Below, piece by piece: positions 632-12,976 of a DNA stretch of 12,976 bases. How positions within the stretch are numbered: the stretch's first letter is position 1; every line of letters begins with the position of its first letter. The position numbers and the translations under genes are program-made. The DNA comes from a virus. Its lineage: Duplodnaviria > Heunggongvirae > Uroviricota > Caudoviricetes. The stretch lies in IMG/VR virus record IMGVR_UViG_2778261571_000007; one strand, given 5' to 3'. The notes under the pieces were generated by a model. That model made no database searches, had not been told where the DNA came from, and saw only the letters and a program-made list of their open reading frames with translations.

Positions 632-1294
632 GAAATTGGCCTCAGATTAATGTTAAGCGTCTTGCCGGACGCGTAATGTTATCTGGGGCTTTTCTCTATC
701 TGCCTTTGGTGTTCATGCCTGAGGCAGATAGCCTCAAGCACCCGCAGCAATTCTACTTAACTCCCGTCACCTCGCCAATATAAAATCAATCAGAAAGGCG
801 ATCCATAAGAACAACAGCAAGACAATAAATTGCCATTACAGCCGCAATAGCTAGCGCACATTTGAGAACCAGCACGACAACCTCCTGTATTGGACGTACA
901 CCAGTTCTGATAAATATGAGGCTGTCTCATCATTGATTCAATATAACTATTGGGTATAGTTTCTGTGATTTTGTTCTGTAGAAATGGAACACAACAACCA
1001 GTCACCACCAGCACTTCTTTAAATACGCCAAGTCCGACGCAAGCTAACCTTCTAGTCCGCTTTGAGCGAGGAGCGGACCAAACCCGGCCAACTGACTCTT
1101 AAAGGGGCCGCAGGAATTTTTCGTCTGAACTTTCGAAGCTCCTCTCCCTGAAGACAGAAAACTTCTGTGTGCTGTGGGAATATTGAATCTTTGCCTTAGA
1201 TATAAATAATTTTATCCCGCCTGAAGTTTACATTATTTTATTTATCTGTTTTTCTAAATCAGACTGCACTCCTTACTTAAATCAGGAGCCAGTC

Positions 1295-2494
1295 ATGCCA
1301 TTTGTTATTTATGTGTTTACTATCAGTGCCTTTGCGCTCGGACTCGCGGAATTTGTCCCCATTGGGCTGACAGACGTTATGGCTCAGGGGTTGTGTGTGG
1401 GTGTGGAGCAGACCGGGGCAGCGGTTACAACCTATGCACTGGGGGCAACGTTCGCGGCACCCGTACTGTCTGCGCTGACAGCAAGCTGGAGCCGGAAAAA
1501 TGTAATGCTTACAACTGCCGTTGTGTTTACTGCCGGTAGTCTGGCGGCCGCGTTTGCAGCCACATTACCTCAGCTCCTGTTAGCGCGGTTCATTGCTGGT
1601 CTGGGACACGGCCTGTTTCTGGCTGCGGCATCCAGTACCGCAGCTCGTCTTGCTGGACCGGGTAAAGCAGGCAGAGCGGTGGCTGTGGTATTTGGTGGCT
1701 TTACTCTGGCGATGGCAATCGGCGTACCGCTGAGTACATGGTTGGGGGGGGTGGTCTCATGGCGTCCAGTTCTCGGCGCTATTGCCGCTTTTGGCGCGTT
1801 CGGATTCCTTGGACTGTTGTTCGGTATGAAAGATCCCGTACGCAGCGTGCCCGGTGAACATAGTGACTCAGCAATGCAGAATATCGGCATGCTGTTTAAC
1901 CGTAAGTTGCTGGCCGGCGCGCTGGTTACGGTGCTGGCGTATGCAGGCTCGTTTACGGATTACACCTTTATCGCACCTATTCTGACGCAGGTGACAGGGG
2001 TTACCGGAGCAACGGTGAGTCTGTTTATGCTGGTTTACGGTATTACAGCTGCGGTAGGTAATATTCTTGGTGGGAAACTTACCGACAGCATGGGGGTTAA
2101 TCGTGCCAATATACTCATCATTAGCGGCATTGTTGTTGTCGTGCTTGGTATGTGGCTGCTGTCATCCTCACCGGTGAGCATGGGCATTCTGGTTGCGCTG
2201 CTGGGTATGGTGACATTTGCCGCAGTGCCGGCACTGCAGGCCCGTCTGATTGGTGTCGCTGAGCAACATGCTCCTCATGCGCATGGTGTTGCTGCCGGCC
2301 TGAATATTGCGGGCTTCAACTCAGGTATAGCGCTGGGATCAGTACTGGGCAGCATTACTATAAGCCACGCCGGTATCGTGTATACCGGTATCAGCGGTGC
2401 GATTGTTTCTCTGCTCGGCCTGCTGTTGCTGCTTGCACAAATCCGTCGCAGCCACAGTCGTAAATTTCAACAGGTTAAAATCGTAGGCCAGTAA
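1295..2494 (+). CDS. MFS transporter, DHA1-type efflux pump (SotB/YdeA/NepI-like), 399 aa
   Basis: The protein is highly hydrophobic with a 12-helix-like pattern. It has an N-terminal EFVPIGL motif and a loop G(x)GKAGRAVAVVFGGFTLAMAIGVPL that align to the SotB-type sugar/purine efflux family. A GGAG Shine-Dalgarno lies 8 nt upstream. Confidence 0.88.
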   Translation: MPFVIYVFTISAFALGLAEFVPIGLTDVMAQGLCVGVEQTGAAVTTYALGATFAAPVLSALTASWSRKNVMLTTAVVFTAGSLAAAFAATLPQLLLARFIAGLGHGLFLAAASSTAARLAGPGKAGRAVAVVFGGFTLAMAIGVPLSTWLGGVVSWRPVLGAIAAFGAFGFLGLLFGMKDPVRSVPGEHSDSAMQNIGMLFNRKLLAGALVTVLAYAGSFTDYTFIAPILTQVTGVTGATVSLFMLVYGITAAVGNILGGKLTDSMGVNRANILIISGIVVVVLGMWLLSSSPVSMGILVALLGMVTFAAVPALQARLIGVAEQHAPHAHGVAAGLNIAGFNSGIALGSVLGSITISHAGIVYTGISGAIVSLLGLLLLLAQIRRSHSRKFQQVKIVGQ

Positions 2495-2505
2495 AGGGAG
2501 GTTAT

Positions 2506-3198
2506 ATGCTTACCCGTGAAAATATGCTTAATGGCACATTTGTCAGGGTGCATGAAGCGCTGCTCCCGGCGAATATGCTCTGGGACGCTGAAAAAATACG
2601 CGCATCAATGAACTCTACTCTGGAGGAGCGCCCGACGGGTGCTCCTGTCTGGATATTTGCCTACGGGTCATTGATGTGGAATCCCGTGCTGGCGATTGAA
2701 GAAATGCAACGGGCCCGTCTGAAAGGATTGCAGCGCAGTTTCTGCATTCGTTTGATATCCGGACGAGCGACTCCTGATGTCCCCGGCAGGATGTTATCGC
2801 TCGACGAAGGTGGAATTACCGAAGGTATTGCGTTCAGACTGCCGGAATCGACTCTTATTAATGAGCTGGAAATTGTCTGGACGCGCGAGATGATAACCGG
2901 TCTTTACCGTCCGGTCTGGGCAGACGTTTCGCTAGGAAACGGTGAGGAAATTCAGGCGCTGGCTTTCGTATCAGACAGACTGCATCCGCATTATGAACAG
3001 GACAATCTTACAGCGACCGTAGCGTTGAGCATCGCATCTGCCCGTGGAGACATTGGCACGAATGCAGATTATGTATGGAAACTGCAGGCCACTCTGGGTG
3101 CGTTGGGAATACGGGATGATTACGTGAGTGAACTGGCCCTTGCTCTGCATGAGGCTCCCTGTAACGATAAACTTCATCAGCGAGGCGCTTCACTATGA
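2506..3198 (+). CDS. ChaC-like gamma-glutamylcyclotransferase (glutathione-specific GGCT family), 230 aa
   Basis: The translation carries the hallmark YGSLMWNP motif and aligns along its length to E. coli ChaC as I recall it (e.g. PVWIFAYGSLMWNP, FC(I/L)RL, GRMLSLDEGG, WTREMITG). A strong AGGGAGG Shine-Dalgarno lies upstream; the gene starts 12 bp after the MFS stop. Confidence 0.85.
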   Translation: MLTRENMLNGTFVRVHEALLPANMLWDAEKIRASMNSTLEERPTGAPVWIFAYGSLMWNPVLAIEEMQRARLKGLQRSFCIRLISGRATPDVPGRMLSLDEGGITEGIAFRLPESTLINELEIVWTREMITGLYRPVWADVSLGNGEEIQALAFVSDRLHPHYEQDNLTATVALSIASARGDIGTNADYVWKLQATLGALGIRDDYVSELALALHEAPCNDKLHQRGASL

Positions 3199-4076
3199 GC
3201 CATCTGAGCCATCTGCGAACGTTTCTTGAGGCCTATCGCTCTGGCTCCTTTTCAAAGGCGGCAGAACTACTGGGCATCACTCAGCCCGCGGCGTCACAGC
3301 ATATCCAGTCTCTTGAGACTCTGGTTGGTAAGCGTCTGTTTATCAGGCAGGCCAGAGGCGTGACGGCAACCGAAGCTGCGGATGAGCTTGCCCGCTCAGT
3401 TTCACCCTTCATTGATGGTCTGGAAGAAAAGCTGTCCTCTTTCCGGTCAGGCTCTGTACGCGGGGGAACAATTAATCTGGCAGGACCGCCAGATTTTATT
3501 CATTCCCGGCTTGGGACAGTAATGGCTCCACTAATGAAGGAGGGGTATCGCCTACGCTTTCATACCGGCAATAAGCAACGTATTTATTCCCTTTTGCATG
3601 ACGGGAGCGCCGATCTCGCTGTTACCGCATCTATGCCTGATGACCGTCTGTACGGCTATGCACATCTACTGACTGAACGCATGCTCCTTGTTCATGCTCC
3701 CGCCATGTCAGAGATCATCGGATCAGAACCTGGTGCTGAAACGCTTGCCTCATTACCGCTGATTGCTTATGACGAAGAGTTGCCACTGATTAGAGCGCTC
3801 TGGGCCTCCATGTTTCAGAGAGCCCCTGAGATGCAGGCTACATTCACCATTCCGGATTTACGTATTATCCGCGACTTGGTCTGTGACGGCCACGGGTGGA
3901 CAGTGCTGCCGGATTATCACTGTGACAATGACCTGAAAAGTGGTCGCCTGATTTCAGTGACACCTGCAGACCTCGCTCCGACTAATCATCTTTATCTGGT
4001 CTGGAACAAAAGGACGGCTAATAACAGCCGAACCGCCTATGTTCGGGATTACATTCTTAAAACGTTTCCGCGTTGA
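3195..4076 (+). CDS. LysR-family transcriptional regulator, 293 aa
   Basis: The N-terminus has the LysR helix-turn-helix signature (LRTFLEAYRSGSFSKAAELLGITQPAASQHIQSLE), and the length and C-terminal domain are typical of the family. The start codon overlaps the ChaC-like stop (ATGA), implying co-transcription. Confidence 0.9.
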   Translation: MSHLSHLRTFLEAYRSGSFSKAAELLGITQPAASQHIQSLETLVGKRLFIRQARGVTATEAADELARSVSPFIDGLEEKLSSFRSGSVRGGTINLAGPPDFIHSRLGTVMAPLMKEGYRLRFHTGNKQRIYSLLHDGSADLAVTASMPDDRLYGYAHLLTERMLLVHAPAMSEIIGSEPGAETLASLPLIAYDEELPLIRALWASMFQRAPEMQATFTIPDLRIIRDLVCDGHGWTVLPDYHCDNDLKSGRLISVTPADLAPTNHLYLVWNKRTANNSRTAYVRDYILKTFPR

Positions 4077-4120
4077 TGTTTGAAACGGATGATTGGCGAT
4101 GCGTATCATAAGTTACGTAT

Positions 4121-4150
4121 GTCCGCTTCTGGCACAAAGCAGACGCCCAC
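4121..4150. repeat. Copy A of a 30-bp imperfect direct repeat (GTCCGCTTCTGGCACAAAGCAGACGCCCAC)
   Basis: 24 of 30 positions match copy B at 7794-7823 in the same orientation. It lies in the convergent intergenic gap between the LysR gene and the DUF2254-like gene. Confidence 0.6.
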
Positions 4151-4206
4151 TCTCACGCGAATGCTTTGCCCTTGACTTGCCAACAACCGTATCGCTTGCT
4201 CCGCAA

Positions 4207-5484
4207 CTATGGTTTTTTATTAGAATCTTCGCCACTAAATAAATTATAATAAATTGATTTTATTAGATATCTGTCAGAATCTATATGGTCAGCACGAGTA
4301 GCATGCTCTAATGTTTCAAATGCTAGGGTTTGTGCGGCTTCAGCAAAAATTCCAGGCCAACCCTTACTCAGCATCGACAGTCCTTTAAGTACCCTTATCT
4401 GAATTTCCCTCATACTGGCACCATCGCGCGCAACAGGTGAGAAAAAGTCTTCAAGTAGATCGTTATTCTGAAGTGGTGCAACATGTACAGAAGGATATTT
4501 CACTTCTATTTCATCAGATTTATTCTGCGCGTAAGCGGAAAGTATACGTACACCTCTGCCAATGACATCAATGGCGGTTCCAGGATCGTTCACTGCGGGG
4601 GAAAGGGCTCGGCAGGCTATTTCGGCCATGACGCTAAGACAAAATCGGGGGTCCTGAGCAAATGAACGTACATCCGAGACAATAATCGTCTCAAGTAAAT
4701 CGGTGCTGATTGATGACTCCTGGCCCTGACTCAGGTACAAAACTGGCGTGGACGGATGTATGAAACTGCCCGGCTGCGCCACGAGGTATACATGACGGGG
4801 ATCATTGGTCAGCAGCTTGCTGAGTTTCACCATATCAACATATTCAACATAGCCAATCTTTTTCGGATAAACTGCAACCGTTCCTTTCGGCTGTTCATTG
4901 TTCTCAAGCCATGGATATCCGCCGAGACAGGGATTTCTTGCTCTCGCAATAAATGTTTCGATGGCCGCCTGTTCTACTTTTGCCGTTGTCTCACCAACCC
5001 TCCCCAGAGAGGTCAAATGCTGTATCCAGCGAAGCAATGTGATGAGGATTAAGGCAATGACAACCAGTGTTACAATGAATAAAATGACTCTCCCCCTTTC
5101 TCCATAAGCTCCCATATTGAGGGCAATAATCCCTACCAGACTGAAGAGAAAAGAACCGATGAAGGTGGCCAGTACATTTTGTGTGGTGACGTCTTCAACA
5201 ACTAAACGAGTAGCTCTGGGAGTCACATTAGTAGTGGCTGAACCGTAGGCTGTGACCATGATGCTCAGCGAAAATGTGGTCACTGCCAGCATACTCGATG
5301 CCAGTATGTTCAGAATGTTATCGACTGCTTCCGCACCAACCTTCACGGAAACCGACTCAGGTATCATTGATTTAAAAAGAATTGATAAAAGGGCCGTTAT
5401 TATTGCGACAATTGCGAATAACGTTGCCCTGAACCATAGTTTTTTAAATGTCTGCTTCAGCATCCATTTCCAGCGTGAAATCAT
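4207..5484 (-). CDS. Integral membrane protein with a large C-terminal soluble domain, DUF2254-like, about 425 aa
   Basis: A long ORF with N-terminal transmembrane segments and a conserved-looking SPAVNDPGTAID motif. The start is probably the ATG at 5482-5484 (GAGGGA Shine-Dalgarno 9 nt upstream); the ORF track's ATG at 5499 has no Shine-Dalgarno. The family assignment is from memory and moderately certain. Confidence 0.8.
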   Translation of the reverse strand: MISRWKWMLKQTFKKLWFRATLFAIVAIITALLSILFKSMIPESVSVKVGAEAVDNILNILASSMLAVTTFSLSIMVTAYGSATTNVTPRATRLVVEDVTTQNVLATFIGSFLFSLVGIIALNMGAYGERGRVILFIVTLVVIALILITLLRWIQHLTSLGRVGETTAKVEQAAIETFIARARNPCLGGYPWLENNEQPKGTVAVYPKKIGYVEYVDMVKLSKLLTNDPRHVYLVAQPGSFIHPSTPVLYLSQGQESSISTDLLETIIVSDVRSFAQDPRFCLSVMAEIACRALSPAVNDPGTAIDVIGRGVRILSAYAQNKSDEIEVKYPSVHVAPLQNNDLLEDFFSPVARDGASMREIQIRVLKGLSMLSKGWPGIFAEAAQTLAFETLEHATRADHIDSDRYLIKSIYYNLFSGEDSNKKP

Positions 5485-5509
5485 TCTGCATTCCCTCATA
5501 TTGCAGCCG

Positions 5510-5541
5510 GGATAAATAAATGCCGCCTCTGTGGCGGCATG
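5510..5541 (-). terminator. Rho-independent terminator downstream of the BetT-like gene
   Basis: On the minus strand: ATGCCGCC-ACAGA-GGCGGCAT (8-bp GC-rich stem) followed directly by TTTATTTAT, starting 7 nt after the BetT-like stop. Confidence 0.7.
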
Positions 5542-5547
5542 TTGCTG

Positions 5548-7551
5548 TTAACGAACCAGATGCAGGAAGTGCAGGTGTTTTTCGTACTGGTCCAGTATGT
5601 CATTAATCAGCTGTTCCTGATTCCAGCCCATTACATCATAATTTTGGCCGCCCTCTTTGAGATAGACTTCAGCGCGATAATATCGATGTTGTTCACTCTG
5701 CTGCTCATCATTATCCAGCGCAGCGAGCGCGAAGGTCGGTGAGTTATACCCGCGAAGCCTCACTTCATATATATAATTCAGCTCGTTGCCCAAATCGACT
5801 TCAAGGCGAATACGATCCTCGGCGGCGTCACTGATGTGGCTTATCGTTCCCTGCTTGTTAAGTTCCTCCTGAACCAGCGTCATGGCGGGTTGGATAATGT
5901 CGTCCATAAAACGTTTCACAAGAGAGCGCTTCGGCAAATACGCGATATTGCGTAACCTTCTCTGCCAGGGAATTGGGTTACGTGCAGCCGTAGGAGCAAT
6001 AGTCGCCATGCTAAGGCTTTCACGTTTGGTCAAATCCCGACGCAGGGCTTTTAACAGTCCGTATATGGATATTAATAAGATAACTGAGAAGGGCAATGCA
6101 CTCGCTATCGTTACGGTTTGCAACGCACTCAGCCCCCCTGCGATCAGCAGGGCAATAGCAACAACGCCCATGAGCGATGCCCAGAAAATTCGCTGCCAGA
6201 CGGGCGTGTTTGCCACCCCACCTGATGCCAGAGTATCCACAACCATTGCCCCCGAATCAGCAGACGTTACAAAGAAGACGATGACCATCGCCATTGCAAT
6301 GAATGACAGCACGGAAGAGAACGGGAAATGCTCCAGGAAATTAAACAGGGCAAGCGCAACATCCTGCTGAACGGTATTGGCGAGGTCAGTGGCGCCCTGG
6401 TTCATGATGAGATAGATGGCGCTGTTTCCAAACACCGTCATCCACATGAGCGTAAAGCCGGCGGGAACAAACAACACGCCAGTCACGAACTCACGAATTG
6501 TCCTGCCGCGGGAAACGCGTGCAATGAACATACCTACAAACGGCGACCATGAAAGCCACCATCCCCAGTATAATAATGTCCAGCCCCCCAGCCAGTTGCT
6601 CGACTTGGGTTCATACGCGTAAAGGTTGAACGTTTTACTCACCAGTTCCGACAGATAACCACCCGTATTTTCCACAAATGACTTCAGCAGAAGCACAGTG
6701 GGACCCAGGCACAAGACCAGCGCCAGGAGCAACACCGCCAGGCCCAGATTAAGCTCAGACAGGATGCGTATTCCCTTGTCCAGGCCGGACACCACCGAAA
6801 TCGTCGCTAACCCCGTGATGACCACGATCAAAATGACCTGTACCGTTTCATTGATGGGCACGCCGAAAAGATGGTTCAAACCGGCATTCACCTGCAATAC
6901 ACCGTAACCCAGCGATGTTGCAACGCCAAAGACAGTGCCTATCACGGCGAAGATATCAACCGCGTGGCCTATAGGCCCGTAAATGCGATCGCCGATAATG
7001 GGATAGAGCGCAGAACGCAGCGTTAAAGGCAGACCGTGACGGTAACTGAAAAAGGCCAGAATCAGCGCCACGATGGCATAAATTGCCCATGCGTGCAGAC
7101 CCCAGTGGAAGAACGTCAGGCGCATGGCTTCCTTCGCTGCCGCAACGGTCTCTGGAGTGCCGACAGGTGGCGAAAGATAATGCATCACAGGTTCGGCAAC
7201 GCCAAAGAACATCAGGCCGATCCCCATCCCTGCCGAAAAAAGCATCGCGAACCAGGAGTGGTAGCTGAAATCAGGCTGCGCATGGTCTGGGCCCAGCTTT
7301 ATATCACCGTAACGTGAGAGTCCAAGGAACGTGACGCTCAGTAAAATCAGGGCCACAGCAAGTATGTAGAACCAGCTGGCATTCGTGAAGATTTGTTGCT
7401 GAAGTAGTTTAAAATTTTTGTCGGCGACATCCGGGAATACGGCGGCAAAGGCGACAAGAAGGAAAATTAGCAAAGCAGATGTAAAGAATACCGCTTTGTT
7501 AATCTGGCTTGTAGACTTCTTTGGGGTTGTATCATTTTCACTCATAATCAT
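5548..7551 (-). CDS. BCCT-family transporter, BetT-like (choline/betaine/carnitine family), 667 aa
   Basis: The translation aligns throughout with E. coli BetT as I recall it (e.g. KLGP(E/D)..P(E/D)FS..SW.AMLF.AG.GI.LMFF.VAEP, WSPFVG(M/L)F(I/L)ARISRGRTIR(E/Q)FV, VTSADSGA) and includes a long C-terminal cytoplasmic tail. No betI/betB/betA genes are adjacent. Confidence 0.9.
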   Translation of the reverse strand: MIMSENDTTPKKSTSQINKAVFFTSALLIFLLVAFAAVFPDVADKNFKLLQQQIFTNASWFYILAVALILLSVTFLGLSRYGDIKLGPDHAQPDFSYHSWFAMLFSAGMGIGLMFFGVAEPVMHYLSPPVGTPETVAAAKEAMRLTFFHWGLHAWAIYAIVALILAFFSYRHGLPLTLRSALYPIIGDRIYGPIGHAVDIFAVIGTVFGVATSLGYGVLQVNAGLNHLFGVPINETVQVILIVVITGLATISVVSGLDKGIRILSELNLGLAVLLLALVLCLGPTVLLLKSFVENTGGYLSELVSKTFNLYAYEPKSSNWLGGWTLLYWGWWLSWSPFVGMFIARVSRGRTIREFVTGVLFVPAGFTLMWMTVFGNSAIYLIMNQGATDLANTVQQDVALALFNFLEHFPFSSVLSFIAMAMVIVFFVTSADSGAMVVDTLASGGVANTPVWQRIFWASLMGVVAIALLIAGGLSALQTVTIASALPFSVILLISIYGLLKALRRDLTKRESLSMATIAPTAARNPIPWQRRLRNIAYLPKRSLVKRFMDDIIQPAMTLVQEELNKQGTISHISDAAEDRIRLEVDLGNELNYIYEVRLRGYNSPTFALAALDNDEQQSEQHRYYRAEVYLKEGGQNYDVMGWNQEQLINDILDQYEKHLHFLHLVR

Positions 7552-7793
7552 TTATTCCATTAATTAAATCCGCACTGGATAGAAGGTACTACCTCTCACA
7601 GAGTAGCAAAGTTCAACTGGCTATGCGGGGTTAATCGGAATGCATGGTGGAATGAGTGCCGATACAAATCATCCTATATTCTAAGGAGTTTTAAGTTACT
7701 CAGCCTGCCAATTACTGGGGCATTTAATTTGTATGATCTGTATCAAAGCTGGGATATAAGTTAAGTGAAGTATATTAGGCACGAATTACCAGC

Positions 7794-7823
7794 GTCTGCT
7801 CTTGGCACAAAGCGGACAACCAC
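7794..7823. repeat. Copy B of the 30-bp imperfect direct repeat (GTCTGCTCTTGGCACAAAGCGGACAACCAC)
   Basis: Matches copy A (4121-4150) at 24 of 30 positions. It lies between the BetT-like start and the end of the phage 140-aa gene. Confidence 0.6.
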
Positions 7824-7885: not shown

Positions 7886-8308
7886 TCACTTCAATAAATA
7901 CCGAACATCCCCCTGATAAAACGACAATATGCGCTGCATAACTTCGCTCTTCCGGCACTCGCGACAGATTATGTTTAGGCGACTGTCGTAGCGACGTATT
8001 TCTCCGTCAGGTAATGACCAGATAAGGTCCGGATCAACCACAACCGGTTTCTTCAGCTTTGCCCTCGATAATTTTTTGCGGGCATTTTGCCAGTCTTTAC
8101 GAGCCTGTTCAGACGGGAATAACCCGTAGCCAGAATTGTATACATCGCCACTGGCAACCAGCTCTCTGGCCAGAACGCTCATCAGATATCTTGTTGCCCC
8201 AGTTTTAGCTTCCAGTTGTCGTAACGTCTCGCGCCCACTCTGGCGTACGAGTTCAAGAACCTGCCCTTTAATTTTTTCCCGCTCTTCTTGTGTAAAAACT
8301 TTTGCCAC
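7886..8308 (-). CDS. Phage-associated hypothetical protein (140 aa), last gene of the rightward early operon; function unknown
   Basis: GTG start at 8306-8308 with a strong AGGAGGG Shine-Dalgarno 5 nt upstream. It lies 40 bp downstream of the replisome-organizer gene. The basic protein has a C-terminal CRECRK motif and no recognisable helicase or helicase-loader motifs. Confidence 0.6.
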   Translation of the reverse strand: MAKVFTQEEREKIKGQVLELVRQSGRETLRQLEAKTGATRYLMSVLARELVASGDVYNSGYGLFPSEQARKDWQNARKKLSRAKLKKPVVVDPDLIWSLPDGEIRRYDSRLNIICRECRKSEVMQRILSFYQGDVRYLLK

Positions 8309-8348: not shown

Positions 8349-9419
8349 TTACCCCCTGAAGCCCGGCGGAATTTCGTTATCCGGTTCAGAAATATGATTC
8401 ACACAACGCTGGTTGTTCGTGCCGCTTACCGGGAGCAACCAGGGGTTCTCAAAATTCCGGTCCGGTCCAAAAAACGTCGTCGCTCGCTGAACAAATTCCG
8501 TTCCCGTTTTCCCGGTAGCCGCCAAGTATCTTGCGTAACGCCTCACGCCATCCAGCATGGCCTCTGGTGGCACCCCCTCGCGTAATCTGGCCTTCCAGGC
8601 ACTGAAAGCGGATTTCTTCGGGTTTGCCCCAGCACGCAACGGGTACTCCCGCCAGACCTGTTCGAACACATCCGGATAATCCACTCGTCCCACAGACTGC
8701 CCGGTGTTTTCCGGGACTACCCGATCGGCTTCCCGCTGAATGGCGGAATCGGCTTCAGGCTGCTGCAGTTGGTGTGATTGCTCCGCCCTTGCGGTCATCA
8801 CCTGCTGCACAGCGCCCGAATCGGCTTTCAGCGCATACGCTGAATCGGCTTCCGGTGTCGTGCCTGCTGGCTGACCAAGATTGACGGTCTGAACATCCCC
8901 TGCCTGGTTCGTGGCGTTTTTTACGCCATGGACCATAGTGTTTTGATCTTCTTGATCTGTATCTTTATCTGTATCTTTATCTGTCGTGACTCGTCGTGAC
9001 ATGTGCGTGACATTTCGTGACGCGCCGTGACAATCGCCATTTTGTTCCCGCTTTCTTTCCCTCTCTCGCTGCGCCCTCTTGCGCTCTGCAGGAGATTTTG
9101 CGGTTTGCGAAATATTGCCGTTGTCCTCTTTAAGCACCTGGCGTTTTTCCCATCCAGTGATTAAATCACCATCAAGTACCCGCCCCTGCATCGTCTGCAA
9201 AATTGAATCAATTACCTCTTCTGTCACGTCGAGCGCACTTGCCAAATCTTCTGTCGTGACATCAATGTGACCTCGCGTGACATTTCGTGACGCGCTCACC
9301 AGGAGGTGGATATACACTGCCATCACTGTTGCAATTGGCTGTCCTGACACCCTGGCAATTGTTCGCCACTTAGGGTCATTTGGCATGTCATGCCATAATC
9401 TGAGCCAGGCGTTAGCCAT
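8349..9419 (-). CDS. Phage replication initiator / replisome organizer (lambda O-like role), about 356 aa
   Basis: The N-terminus MANAWLRLWHDMPNDPKW resembles the phage replisome-organizer N-terminal domain pattern. The C-terminal segment F.QVW..YP...G...K..A..AW...L......E.......Y resembles the lambda O C-terminal region. Iteron-like repeats lie inside the gene, as in lambda ori. Start is probably the ATG at 9417-9419 (GAGGTGA Shine-Dalgarno); an in-frame GTG at 9425 is also possible. Confidence 0.75.
   Translation of the reverse strand: MANAWLRLWHDMPNDPKWRTIARVSGQPIATVMAVYIHLLVSASRNVTRGHIDVTTEDLASALDVTEEVIDSILQTMQGRVLDGDLITGWEKRQVLKEDNGNISQTAKSPAERKRAQRERERKREQNGDCHGASRNVTHMSRRVTTDKDTDKDTDQEDQNTMVHGVKNATNQAGDVQTVNLGQPAGTTPEADSAYALKADSGAVQQVMTARAEQSHQLQQPEADSAIQREADRVVPENTGQSVGRVDYPDVFEQVWREYPLRAGANPKKSAFSAWKARLREGVPPEAMLDGVRRYARYLAATGKTGTEFVQRATTFFGPDRNFENPWLLPVSGTNNQRCVNHISEPDNEIPPGFRG
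8944..9031. repeat. Putative replication origin core: tandem ATCTKT hexamers followed by five helically phased CGTGAC iterons
   Basis: ATCT recurs at 8946-8976 as (ATCTGT ATCTTT)x2 ATCTGT. CGTGAC then occurs at 8985, 8995, 9006, 9016 and 9026, a 10-11 bp periodicity, all in the same orientation inside the replication gene. Confidence 0.6.
9218..9291. repeat. Second iteron cluster inside the replication gene
   Basis: (C/T)GTGAC occurs at 9255, 9266, 9276 and 9286 with 10-11 bp phasing. One inverted GTCACG lies at 9223, and CTTCTGTC is duplicated at 9218 and 9248. The 21-mer GCGTGACATTTCGTGACGCGC at 9276-9296 is an exact copy of 9005-9025. Confidence 0.55.
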
Positions 9420-9490
9420 ACTCACCTCTTTTGATACCGAATCTTTTTACTCACAAATTGCCGGAAGTGATCCGGTATGAATATTGCGAG

Positions 9491-11741: not shown

Positions 11742-11958
11742 ATCAATAACTCTCAACTGTAAGGGTATTGAAATGTTAACACAAGCTCTCGCTGTAGGGG
11801 TATAGCCGAGACCACCGAAGCCCGGAGGTGGTGAAATAAAACCGGGCACAACACGAAGGCGCATTTCCGATATCCATAAAGAGTCGGTCTTGTCTGTTAA
11901 ATTTAAATGGTGGAGTGCGCCTCCGGTTGTAAATAACGACATTGCTGTGTGTAGTCCT

Positions 11959-12009
11959 GGCGGCATCAGTTTTTTTCTTGAAGTTCGGCTGATGTCCGCC
12001 CTTTTTAAA
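11959..12009 (+). terminator. Strong hairpin (11-bp stem with one bulge, 19-nt loop) followed by CTTTTTAAA; candidate intrinsic terminator or regulatory RNA structure between sieB and kilR
   Basis: GGCGGCATCAG at 11959-11969 pairs with CTGATGTCCGCC at 11989-12000, followed by CTTTTT at 12001-12006. Confidence 0.4.
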
Positions 12010-12181
12010 GTGAATTTTGTGATGCGGTGAATGCGGCTAAGCGCACGTGGCACAGTTAAAAGTCATGTTAGTCCTTATTGGTTTGGGTGGGAAAGCCGAC
12101 TGTAATTGTTAACTGGTTGCAGTCACCTGGAGGCACCAGGCACCGCATCAACAAAGTTCATTTGTAAAAATGGAGATAATT

Positions 12182-12403
12182 ATGATTGCACATCACTTCG
12201 GAACTGATGAAATACCACGTCAGTGTGTGACTCCTGGCGATTATGTTCTTCATGAAGGCCGGACATATATTGCCTCGGCAAACAATATTAAAAAGCGAAA
12301 ACTATATATTCGTAACCTGACCACAAAAACATGCATTACTGACCGCATGATTAAAGTCTTCCTCGGTCGTGATGGTTTACCTGTAAAGGCGGAGTCATGG
12401 TGA
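12182..12403 (+). CDS. kilR: KilR-like cell-division (FtsZ) inhibitor, 73 aa
   Basis: ATG at 12182 has a GGAGA Shine-Dalgarno 5 nt upstream; the ORF-track start at 12170 lies inside that Shine-Dalgarno. The length (73 aa) and position (next to sieB, followed by the small zinc-finger ORF and the RacC-like gene) reproduce the Rac order kilR-ydaE-racC. The sequence [14 protein letters not shown]... is consistent with my recollection of KilR. Confidence 0.7.
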
Positions 12404-12647: not shown

Positions 12648-12944
12648 ATGATTACCAATTATGAAGCCACTGTTGTAACTACCGATGACATTGTTCACGA
12701 GGTGAATCTGGAAGGAAAGCGCATTGGCTACGTAATTAAAACAGAAAATAAAGAAACCCCATTCACTGTGGTTGATATCGATGGTCCATCAGGCAACGTA
12801 AAAACACTTGATGAAGGTGTCAAAAAAATGTGCCTGGTGCATATCGGAAAGAATCTGCCCGCAGAAAAAAAAGCCGAATTTCTGGCAACTCTAATTGCAA
12901 TGAAATTAAAAGGTGAAATCTGGGTGATGCTGCCAACTTACTGA
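12648..12944 (+). CDS. RacC-position phage protein; native coding sequence runs to 12922 and the last 7 codons plus stop are supplied by the IS1 inverted repeat
   Basis: Strong AAGGAG Shine-Dalgarno 6 nt before the ATG at 12648. The reading frame enters the IS1 terminal repeat at 12923, which then encodes VMLPTY and the stop. The native portion is about 91 codons, the size of RacC. Confidence 0.6.
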   Translation: MITNYEATVVTTDDIVHEVNLEGKRIGYVIKTENKETPFTVVDIDGPSGNVKTLDEGVKKMCLVHIGKNLPAEKKAEFLATLIAMKLKGEIWVMLPTY

Positions 12945-12976
12945 TTTAGTGTATGATGGTGTTTTTGAGGTGCTCC
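12923..12976 (+). mobile_element. IS1 insertion sequence, first 54 bp (insA-proximal terminal repeat), element continues rightward past the window edge
   Basis: GGTGATGCTGCCAACTTACTGATTTAGTGTATGATGGTGTTTTTGAGGTGCTCC matches the IS1 terminus as I recall it. The insA GTG start would lie just past the window end. This copy is inverted relative to the copy at 1-83. Confidence 0.9.

Follow-up and report, generated by a model that had tools for sequence, protein, structure and literature searches.

Palindromes that resemble recombination sites border a cassette-like DUF2254–BCCT gene pair in a Rac-type prophage hotspot

Anti-phage defence systems, toxins and metabolic genes turn over at prophage hotspots such as Z/fun in P2 and the stretch that follows the replication genes in lambdoid phages. 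How such hotspots exchange their cargo so cleanly is an unsettled question. Here we analysed a stretch of 12,976 nucleotides from a virus of the Caudoviricetes (IMG/VR record IMGVR_UViG_2778261571_000007; this whole stretch is called the window in the following), in which two copies of a 30-bp repeat flank a pair of genes that encode a DUF2254 membrane protein and a BCCT transporter. The window shows, at base resolution, cargo blocks that end in a specific 24-bp palindrome. With a probability of roughly 0.6, we interpret the repeats as recombination-site palindromes and the gene pair between them as a cassette-like cargo module.

A similar arrangement is annotated in P2-like phages. A BLAST search of phage records with the palindrome on the DUF977 side of the gene pair led to P2-EC46 (AJ512680, 'proviral Z-region'), where the match lies under the annotation 'left inverted repeat'. 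The cargo-proximal end of this annotated left repeat is GTCCGCTATGTGCCAAGAGCGGAC and that of the right repeat is TTCGCTCCTCGCTCAAAGCAGAC; these 24-mers agree with the palindromes of the window at 16–18 of 19 scored positions. As in the window, the P2-like Z region has inverted copies of the TGGCAC and TCGCTC types around variable cargo and an extra copy between two cargo open reading frames (ORFs), and in P2 itself copies of the family flank Z/fun, between genes G and FI. The two systems differ in their backbone, which here is lambdoid (Rac/Qin-type) with a hotspot that extends from DUF977 to hok. Furthermore, palindromes 3 and 2 of the window are inverted around the whole cargo, whereas palindromes 1 and 2 are in direct orientation around one of two modules. 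The source paper of AJ512680, by Nilsson, Karlsson and Haggard-Ljungquist in 2004 (Mol Biol Evol 21:1), reportedly proposes site-specific recombination in its title. Papers that cite the P2 Z-region work refer to it for variable loci and do not discuss the repeats. A full-text literature search for the palindrome sequence gave just a chance match in a fish genetics paper, and searches of the literature on moron or hotspot palindromes and on tyrosine recombinases together with repetitive extragenic palindromes (REP) found nothing relevant. The repeat family and the general idea are thus already known for P2-like phages; the present analysis adds the hotspot in lambdoid prophages, breakpoints at base level, hybrid half-sites and a candidate recombinase.

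The two 30-mers of the window, GTCCGCTTCTGGCACAAAGCAGACGCCCAC at 4121–4150 and GTCTGCTCTTGGCACAAAGCGGACAACCAC at 7794–7823, match at 24 of 30 positions, both on the + strand, with mismatches at positions 4, 8, 9, 21, 25 and 26. This direct comparison of the letters confirms the same-orientation repeat reported in a first-pass annotation of this DNA. The annotation was also right that both copies bracket the gene pair from the flanking intergenic gaps: copy 1 lies between the stop codons of a LysR gene (4076) and of the DUF2254 gene (4207), and copy 2 between the start of the BCCT gene (7551) and the stop of the DUF977 gene (7886). A repeat search stretches the match to 33 nt at 79% identity. 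Both 30-mers represent 24-bp palindromes of the form GTCYGCT-N10-AGCRGAC with 7-bp arms, a symmetry that the annotation had overlooked, and a third palindrome, which the annotation did not include either, has perfect arms and the opposite orientation. The palindromes and the two cargo modules that they border are the following.

4121–4144, + strand: palindrome 1, GTCCGCTTC-TGGCAC-AAAGCAGAC, with a C4/A21 mismatch; border of module A and module B; its likeness to palindrome 2 runs to 4153
7794–7817, + strand: palindrome 2, GTCTGCTCT-TGGCAC-AAAGCGGAC, with T4/G21; border of module B and the phage replication module; its likeness to palindrome 1 runs to 7826
1055–1078, − strand: palindrome 3, GTCCGCTCCTCGCTCAAAGCGGAC on the − strand, with the centre TCGCTC; border of the hok-side phage backbone and module A
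4145–7793, − strand: cargo module B, the DUF2254 and BCCT genes
1079–4120, + strand: cargo module A, three genes by Pfam

Within the window, the pattern GTCCGCT-N10-AGCGGAC with up to three mismatches has three matches, exactly palindromes 1–3, compared to 0.39 expected, and three matches were reached in 1 of 200 shuffled windows. Other two-copy repeats of similar length arise in the window by chance. The window alone suggests a modest signal, not a decisive one; we take the palindromes as real because the same element is found at the same type of junction in thousands of genomes. The direct orientation of the two copies would also fit a DUF2254–BCCT transposon that duplicated a 30-bp target. 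We regard this as barely credible. The two copies agree at just 24/30 positions, although other places have the module at 99.9% identity; the DNA between the copies encodes no transposase; many further junctions contain this sequence too; and the copies differ in a reciprocal and not in a random way.

The window is 99.9–100% identical to Escherichia coli chromosomes, where it lies within a Rac-type lambdoid prophage (trkG, recET, intR, ttcA). In phage-rightward (minus-strand) order, it starts with a cro-like gene, a ydaT-like gene, a replisome organiser, DUF977 and palindrome 2. These are followed by BCCT, DUF2254, palindrome 1, the LysR, ChaC-like and MFS genes on the opposite strand, palindrome 3 and hok/sok. 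In this prophage, of the lambdoid Rac/Qin type, the window is thus the hotspot for variable cargo that extends from DUF977 to hok/sok, and the three palindromes at the module borders split the stretch from the replication genes to hok/sok into two cargo modules. The first-pass annotation had placed the gene pair at a junction between chromosome-like genes and a prophage remnant; instead, the whole region is within the prophage cargo hotspot. The flanks of the hotspot are as follows.

7886–8308, − strand: DUF977 gene, which closes the phage replication module and is a conserved hotspot flank
419–631, − strand: hok toxin ORF, the conserved hotspot flank opposite DUF977; hokD is at the same position in related prophages
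569–743, − strand: sok antisense RNA (Rfam RF01794, 116 bits, above the gathering score)

The backbone genes recur in other E. coli prophages with quite different cargo (QueH, DUF4209, relBE and several hypothetical proteins). In eight annotated prophages and 49 IMG/VR loci, a TGGCAC palindrome lies beside DUF977 and a TCGCTC palindrome, inverted, beside hok. The 49 IMG/VR loci with both hotspot ends contain 16 distinct cargos of 984–6715 bp. Internal palindromes are restricted to multi-module cargos, and none was found in single-module cargos. A scan of IMG/VR detected 248 copies in 120 viral loci, with the centre TCGCTC in 106 of the copies and TGGCAC in 97, and only six of the 248 copies are inside ORFs of at least 150 aa, though such ORFs make up 61% of the sequence.

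Among the complete E. coli genomes, palindrome 2 is present in 3127 of 5426, and a generic TGGCAC-type query finds matches in 3,712 of 5,426, with a median of one place and a maximum of six. In K-12, this query has one match, in Qin under 'ydfV', and a looser pattern scan found a second, weaker Qin copy between ydfW and flxA (locus L004, 4008–4031). All five E. coli genome places that were inspected after the element search are prophages or an island, among them a lambdoid hotspot and an island of the Ag43/YeeP type. In E. coli WP5-S18-ESBL-07 (locus L333, about 5001–5028), for instance, a palindrome lies between MFS/hydrolase/LysR cargo and an island backbone with the YeeP GTPase and Ag43. 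Since this is the cargo border of an integrative island, the family is not confined to phages. According to the first-pass annotation, dispersal of the 30-mer over many loci would make its position around the gene pair coincidental. The palindrome does belong to a dispersed family; however, this does not make the bracketing coincidental, because the members of the family sit systematically at the borders of cargo modules.

Module B also occurs outside the prophage. On the IncY plasmid pPO125 and on a Shigella plasmid, window positions 4119–7818 are present at 99.9% identity, with unrelated DNA on either side, so that the shared segment runs from palindrome 1 to palindrome 2. The palindromes of pPO125 came up in a search with module B, not with the element. 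Module B is furthermore found in an unrelated E. coli island at 92–94% identity, and the identity band of 90–95% comprises 2641 records, which represent the island locus by the matches listed. In the island copy of E. coli O104:H4 (L002, 9529–9560), the far side, on the promoter side, is cut at window position 7654 by the end of an IS3-family element (TGAGGTGTACTGGC...), and the palindrome at the opposite end is decayed (GTTTGCTTTTGACACAAAGCATAC). In addition, module B is present on 1,534 plasmids, 1267 of them from Klebsiella. A module bounded by palindromes would explain how this osmoprotectant-type transporter pair spread over prophages and an island of E. coli and over more than 1,200 plasmids of Klebsiella.

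The homology between different prophages, plasmids and islands ends inside the palindromes. On the hok side, the flank is common to more than 1000 other prophages or genomes, and the homology ends at window 1069–1078; homology to the island-type module B begins at window 4125. When the left end of module B is compared to pPO125, the left arm and the DNA beyond it differ (GTCCGCTTC vs GCCCGCTTT), whereas no difference is present in the centre, the right arm or the module. At the right end, it is the left arm GTCTGCTCT that travels with the module, and the DNA past the palindrome differs, with the DUF977 flank in the window and a relB flank on pPO125, the latter being the flank of Qin in K-12. 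Across related prophages, palindrome 2 is identical from the centre rightwards and its left arm varies with the cargo, where T4 occurs only with module B. Other cargos show the same pattern: prophages and pPO125 have a cargo of 984 bp in common, 100% identical and placed between palindromes in either context. The end of one cargo matches, at 98% identity, a chromosome segment of Enterobacter bugandensis that reaches a palindrome there, and the identity in this alignment goes to about position 16 inside the palindrome and then breaks. In the junction alignments, identity is lost at 9|10 or 16|17, the edges of the 6–7-bp centre, wherever the parents differ enough. Breaks were also placed in five prophages, at the junctions on the hok side and on the DUF977 side; for the right-hand junction of module B, the break can be placed only at or before position 24.

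Palindromes 1 and 2 contain reciprocal half-sites, C4/A21 and T4/G21, respectively. The arms carried by module B, GTCTGCT and AGCAGAC, are fully complementary to each other, and T4:A21 sites are present elsewhere. According to the mechanism that we propose, each palindrome would be a tyrosine-recombinase core-type site with two inverted arms of 8–9 bp and strand exchange in the asymmetric centre, and recombination between two such sites would add, remove or exchange modules. In each of palindromes 1 and 2, an arm of the site that belongs to module B (GTCTGCT...AGCAGAC) would then be combined with an arm of a resident site (GTCCGCT...AGCGGAC): a reciprocal exchange of a module-borne GTCTGCTCT-TGGCAC-AAAGCAGAC with the resident site would leave palindromes 1 and 2. 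We infer that the two could be hybrid sites of the attL/attR type; the reciprocity of the arms supports the exchange without being a proof of it. The view of the first-pass annotation that the gene pair is an inserted, att-like or repeat-mediated cassette can thus be retained in part. DUF2254–BCCT behaves as a discrete portable module that ends in the repeats, given the 99.9% identical copies on pPO125 and the Shigella plasmid, the breaks inside the repeats and the reciprocal mismatches. The repeats, in turn, are neither a unique att site nor a target-site duplication nor the att sites of an integrase-bearing element in the window.

What is conserved in the element also bears on its function. 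Among 208 unique copies, the seven stem pairs each show 11–54 one-sided changes, compared to 0–3 compensatory changes. A conserved flank, AAY, is present on the 5' side but not on the 3' side, and there are two discrete centre types; positions 8–9 are variable and positions 16–17 invariant. Single-strand folding of both 30-mer copies is weak (−3 to −5 kcal/mol, z-scores of +0.56 to −1.17). Rfam has no family over the palindromes, neither in the window at E ≤ 1 nor in 15 other loci at the gathering score. None of the three palindromes was called as a terminator, and no T-run follows any copy. Taken together, the one-sided changes, the weak folds, the missing T-runs and terminator calls and the lack of an Rfam family indicate that the double-stranded sequence is conserved and not a hairpin. 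We rejected an RNA or DNA hairpin under structural selection due to the lack of compensatory changes and the weak folds, and an intrinsic terminator as no T-run was present and none was called.

The same observations bear on the idea that the palindromes are transcriptional punctuation, that is, terminators, RNA-stabilising stem-loops or insulators that accompany each moron, by analogy with the pairs of promoter and terminator described for morons of phages. Palindrome 1 is indeed between convergent genes, and palindrome 2 follows the last replication gene, a position that tR2 occupies in lambda. However, palindrome 3 is between divergent genes, none of the palindromes is terminator-like or followed by a T-run, and the weak folding, the missing compensatory changes and the missing Rfam family make punctuation very improbable. 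The layout of the site, GTCCGCTyy / TGGCAC or TCGCTC / AAAGCGGAC, comprises inverted arms around an asymmetric centre. Judged from its letters, the palindrome has the shape of a tyrosine-recombinase core site, and those apparent crossovers that can be placed lie at the borders of the centre.

A candidate for the enzyme is found in multi-module arrays. Two of these, on locus L003 and on pPO125, encode a 200-aa 'site-specific integrase' with PF00589 alone (E = 2e-17), in which the catalytic motifs (R...HxxR...H...Y) can be read from the sequence as RGCDL, HSMRRT and LLGHKKLESTVRY. In NCBIfam, this protein has no equivalog, and its likeness to Xer and FimB/E-type proteins is far below the cut-offs. 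It recurs as a module of about 700 bp, and homologues with 77–95% identity are present across Gammaproteobacteria (Providencia, Proteus, Pantoea, Erwinia, Sodalis, Idiomarina, Cycloclasticus and others). The genes that we located are the following.

L003, 2202–2804: 200-aa recombinase gene
L131, 3299–3901: 200-aa recombinase gene
L255, L259 and L260–L263, 4001–4603/4612: 200-aa recombinase genes

In islands, plasmids and prophage hotspots, this gene sits between resistance or cargo modules. About 30 bases past its stop codon, a stem-loop is fused to G-TGCCA-AGAGCGGAC, that is, to the centre and one arm of the palindrome, in every context fetched: an E. coli prophage, the IncY plasmid, a Providencia island, an Idiomarina chromosome and marine arsenic/copper islands. 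The stem-loop has the form CAGGGCTG-N5-CAGCCCTG and is joined to the half-site TGCCAAGAGCGGAC. We fetched 68 viral loci that encode relatives of the recombinase and analysed 27, among which 19 hold 1–5 palindromes; by our own estimate from the match rule, about 0.03 per locus would be expected. The half-site is kept in 11 of 14 viral loci with relatives that are at least 83% identical, and relatives at 55–66% identity accompany the centre variants GGCC/GACC of the alphaproteobacterial type. As centre type and half-site co-vary with the recombinase, the 200-aa protein is the best candidate enzyme. More speculatively, this widespread tyrosine recombinase, which consists of the catalytic domain only and is encoded outside the window, might act on the palindromes in trans. 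We put forward only tentatively, as something less than an even chance, that the palindromes are the sites of a widespread, uncharacterised cassette-exchange system that is run by this protein. If true, the system would shuttle gene modules, anti-phage and metabolic ones among them, between lambdoid and P2 hotspots, phage-plasmids, conjugative islands and chromosomes. In some genomes, its sites would have given rise to REP-like families by multiplication, and the system would be a tyrosine-recombinase counterpart of integrons and of REP/RAYT systems.

Two described systems resemble this arrangement. Like integron cassettes with their attC sites, the modules are self-contained or promoterless, are separated by imperfect palindromes and form arrays with hybrid sites, a tyrosine-type recombinase is associated, and the candidate gene also has the order of ORF and then site. 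Unlike in integrons, there is no IntI, attI or Pc, the cargo of the window includes no integrase and the IntR of the prophage is distant, and the modules occur in either orientation and in phage hotspots rather than in an integron platform. The palindromes also differ from attC in that no RYYYAAC/GTTRRRY core is present and that primary sequence, not a folded structure, is conserved. The pdif modules of Acinetobacter plasmids (XerC/XerD) likewise combine short palindromic sites, alternating orientation, many contexts and breakpoints in the sites. They differ in the enzyme, as the candidate here is a separate 200-aa protein for which the Xer models score far below their cut-offs. A likeness in sequence to dif/Xer or attC sites was considered and rejected, no alignment having been run; the arms of the palindromes were judged unrelated to the dif consensus.

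The element is also found in other genera. In a collection with one genome per species, the exact pattern matched at least 120 loci, compared to about four expected by our own estimate from the size of the collection and the 19 fixed bases. Many of these loci belong, as listed, to Alphaproteobacteria, where the element is REP-like and often in tandem at 45 bp. In Pseudolabrys, Xanthobacteraceae and Bradyrhizobium, the 24-mer has the centre TGGCMC and a very high copy number; the tandem spacer has the form ...tagtgcaccgcacat (L006–L125, e.g. L030 2983–3051 and L076 2579–2647). These copies are downstream of paralogous genes for solute-binding proteins that end in DEVIE, which are the only recurrent genes near them; neither a transposase nor a recombinase recurs there. 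In Enterobacter, Pantoea, Mixta, Citrobacter, Klebsiella spallanzanii and Ewingella, the element occurs among ordinary chromosomal genes as doublets with a distance of about 42 bp. The flanks AAY...AT and the bases T10-G11 agree between the groups though they are outside the search pattern, which suggests one family, or families bound by related proteins.

With REP, BIME and REPIN elements, the palindromes share that they are short and intergenic, have two subtypes and alternating orientation, form doublets of about 42 bp and reach high copy numbers, the latter in the genomes of other genera. They differ in their low copy number in E. coli, where the places inspected are just mobile elements, in the flank consensus AAY with no GTAG-type 5' motif seen, and in the associated gene, which encodes a classical tyrosine recombinase; a Y1/HUH RAYT gene was not noticed, though no search aimed at one was made. 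Independent REP-type elements, selfish or structural, that settle in any non-essential intergenic gap, of which cargo regions offer many, would make the bracketing of the gene pair incidental. Such elements would be strongly intergenic, as observed (6/248 inside long ORFs), and would fit the doublets of about 42 bp, the up to nine copies per 8 kb in Ewingella, Enterobacter and Pantoea, the hundreds of alphaproteobacterial copies downstream of paralogous genes, and the nearest chromosomal relative of module A, in Enterobacter sp. BIGb0383, alongside which no palindromes were found. They would not account for the low copy number in E. coli (median 1, maximum 6) with all five inspected places in a prophage or island, nor for the missing internal copies in single-module cargos. 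In several independent comparisons, moreover, the palindromes coincide base for base with the homology breaks and the arms co-vary with the adjoining module. We therefore consider it improbable that the bracketing is incidental.

A further explanation is short portable homology. Here, the palindromes would be linkers that need no enzyme of their own, and RecA, lambda Red or the RecET proteins of Rac would cross over within the repeats of about 24 bp, which would exchange modules among phages, plasmids and chromosomes in the same cell. The breakpoints are inside the repeats, these prophages encode recE and recT, the window includes no small-type recombinase, and the REP-like chromosomal copies in other Enterobacterales could supply homology for the capture of genes. 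However, efficient recombination by RecA or Red usually needs about 20–30 bp, and the identical tract common to both parents is often just about 15 bp. The breaks are concentrated on the centre edges and not distributed over the whole repeat; the asymmetric conserved flank, the two centre types and the missing compensatory changes point to recognition by a protein; and the half-site beside the recombinase gene is conserved across orders. As the parents have only short identical tracts in common and the breaks concentrate on the centre, we rank homologous recombination second and hold it to be rather unlikely.

Several observations weigh against our interpretation of the palindromes as recombination sites. 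Homologous recombination over short repeats would produce similar junctions. As the arms are conserved family-wide, breakpoints can be placed solely where the parents differ, and several junctions are placed to within a few bases. One-sided T4 is present in 18 of 208 copies and one-sided A21 in 23 of 208, and reciprocity of T4/A21 was observed in one case. Of the 49 hotspot loci, many represent orthologous copies rather than independent events. The link between enzyme and site is associative, as the window encodes no small-type recombinase; neither in the window nor in the 8-kb genome loci was one found, apart from one weak tblastn match (26% identity, Pseudolabrys locus). In Enterobacter, Ewingella and Alphaproteobacteria, the element resembles an ordinary REP family, and the BIGb0383 relative of module A without palindromes leaves a capture of this module via REPs of the donor unsupported. 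Finally, the first-pass annotation had proposed to look for an empty site with a single copy. A synthetic junction query that joins module A to DUF977 via one palindrome had no match in 5,426 complete E. coli genomes, so an insertion of module B at exactly this place is undocumented. The two modules may have come in jointly, or in a different order.

Cargo blocks that end in the palindrome, and that recur between such palindromes on plasmids and in other prophages, yield a sequence signature for delimiting cargo modules in mobile elements of enterobacteria, a testable mechanism of site-specific exchange at hybrid sites and a candidate enzyme. Lastly, we describe the genes of the two modules and the remaining features of the window.

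1295–2494, + strand: MFS transporter (Pfam), module A
2506–3198, + strand: ChaC-like gamma-glutamylcyclotransferase (Pfam), module A
3195–4076, + strand: LysR regulator (Pfam), module A
4207–5499, − strand: DUF2254 membrane protein (Pfam), module B
5548–7551, − strand: BCCT betaine/choline-type transporter, 667 aa (Pfam), module B

Module A is present in about 297 E. coli genomes, and DUF2254 is also present in all full-length matches listed. The trio of MFS, ChaC-like and LysR genes is chromosomal in Enterobacter sp. BIGb0383, with 87% identity over window 1182–4079 (locus L253, 4678–7574), which points to an Enterobacter-like origin of the module. In module B, the BCCT and DUF2254 genes are separated by a bidirectional terminator-like hairpin (5520–5540) with eight pairs, six of which are G-C. 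Thus, the two genes may not form a simple operon.

Outside the cargo, the 358-aa ORF at 8349–9425 on the − strand contains direct repeats rich in CGTGAC (8993–9031 and 9253–9291). This ORF is labelled 'phage replisome organizer' in a relative, and its repeats resemble the origin iterons in a lambda-O-like gene. Rfam matches below the gathering score were found on the + strand at 11946–12001 (DicF-like, 39 bits) and 12003–12189 (STnc100-like, 35 bits). The ends of the window, 30–85 and 12921–12976, form a 56-nt inverted repeat that is 98% complementary and that we take to be the terminal inverted repeat of IS1. The window would thus be the stretch of the prophage between two inverted copies of IS1.

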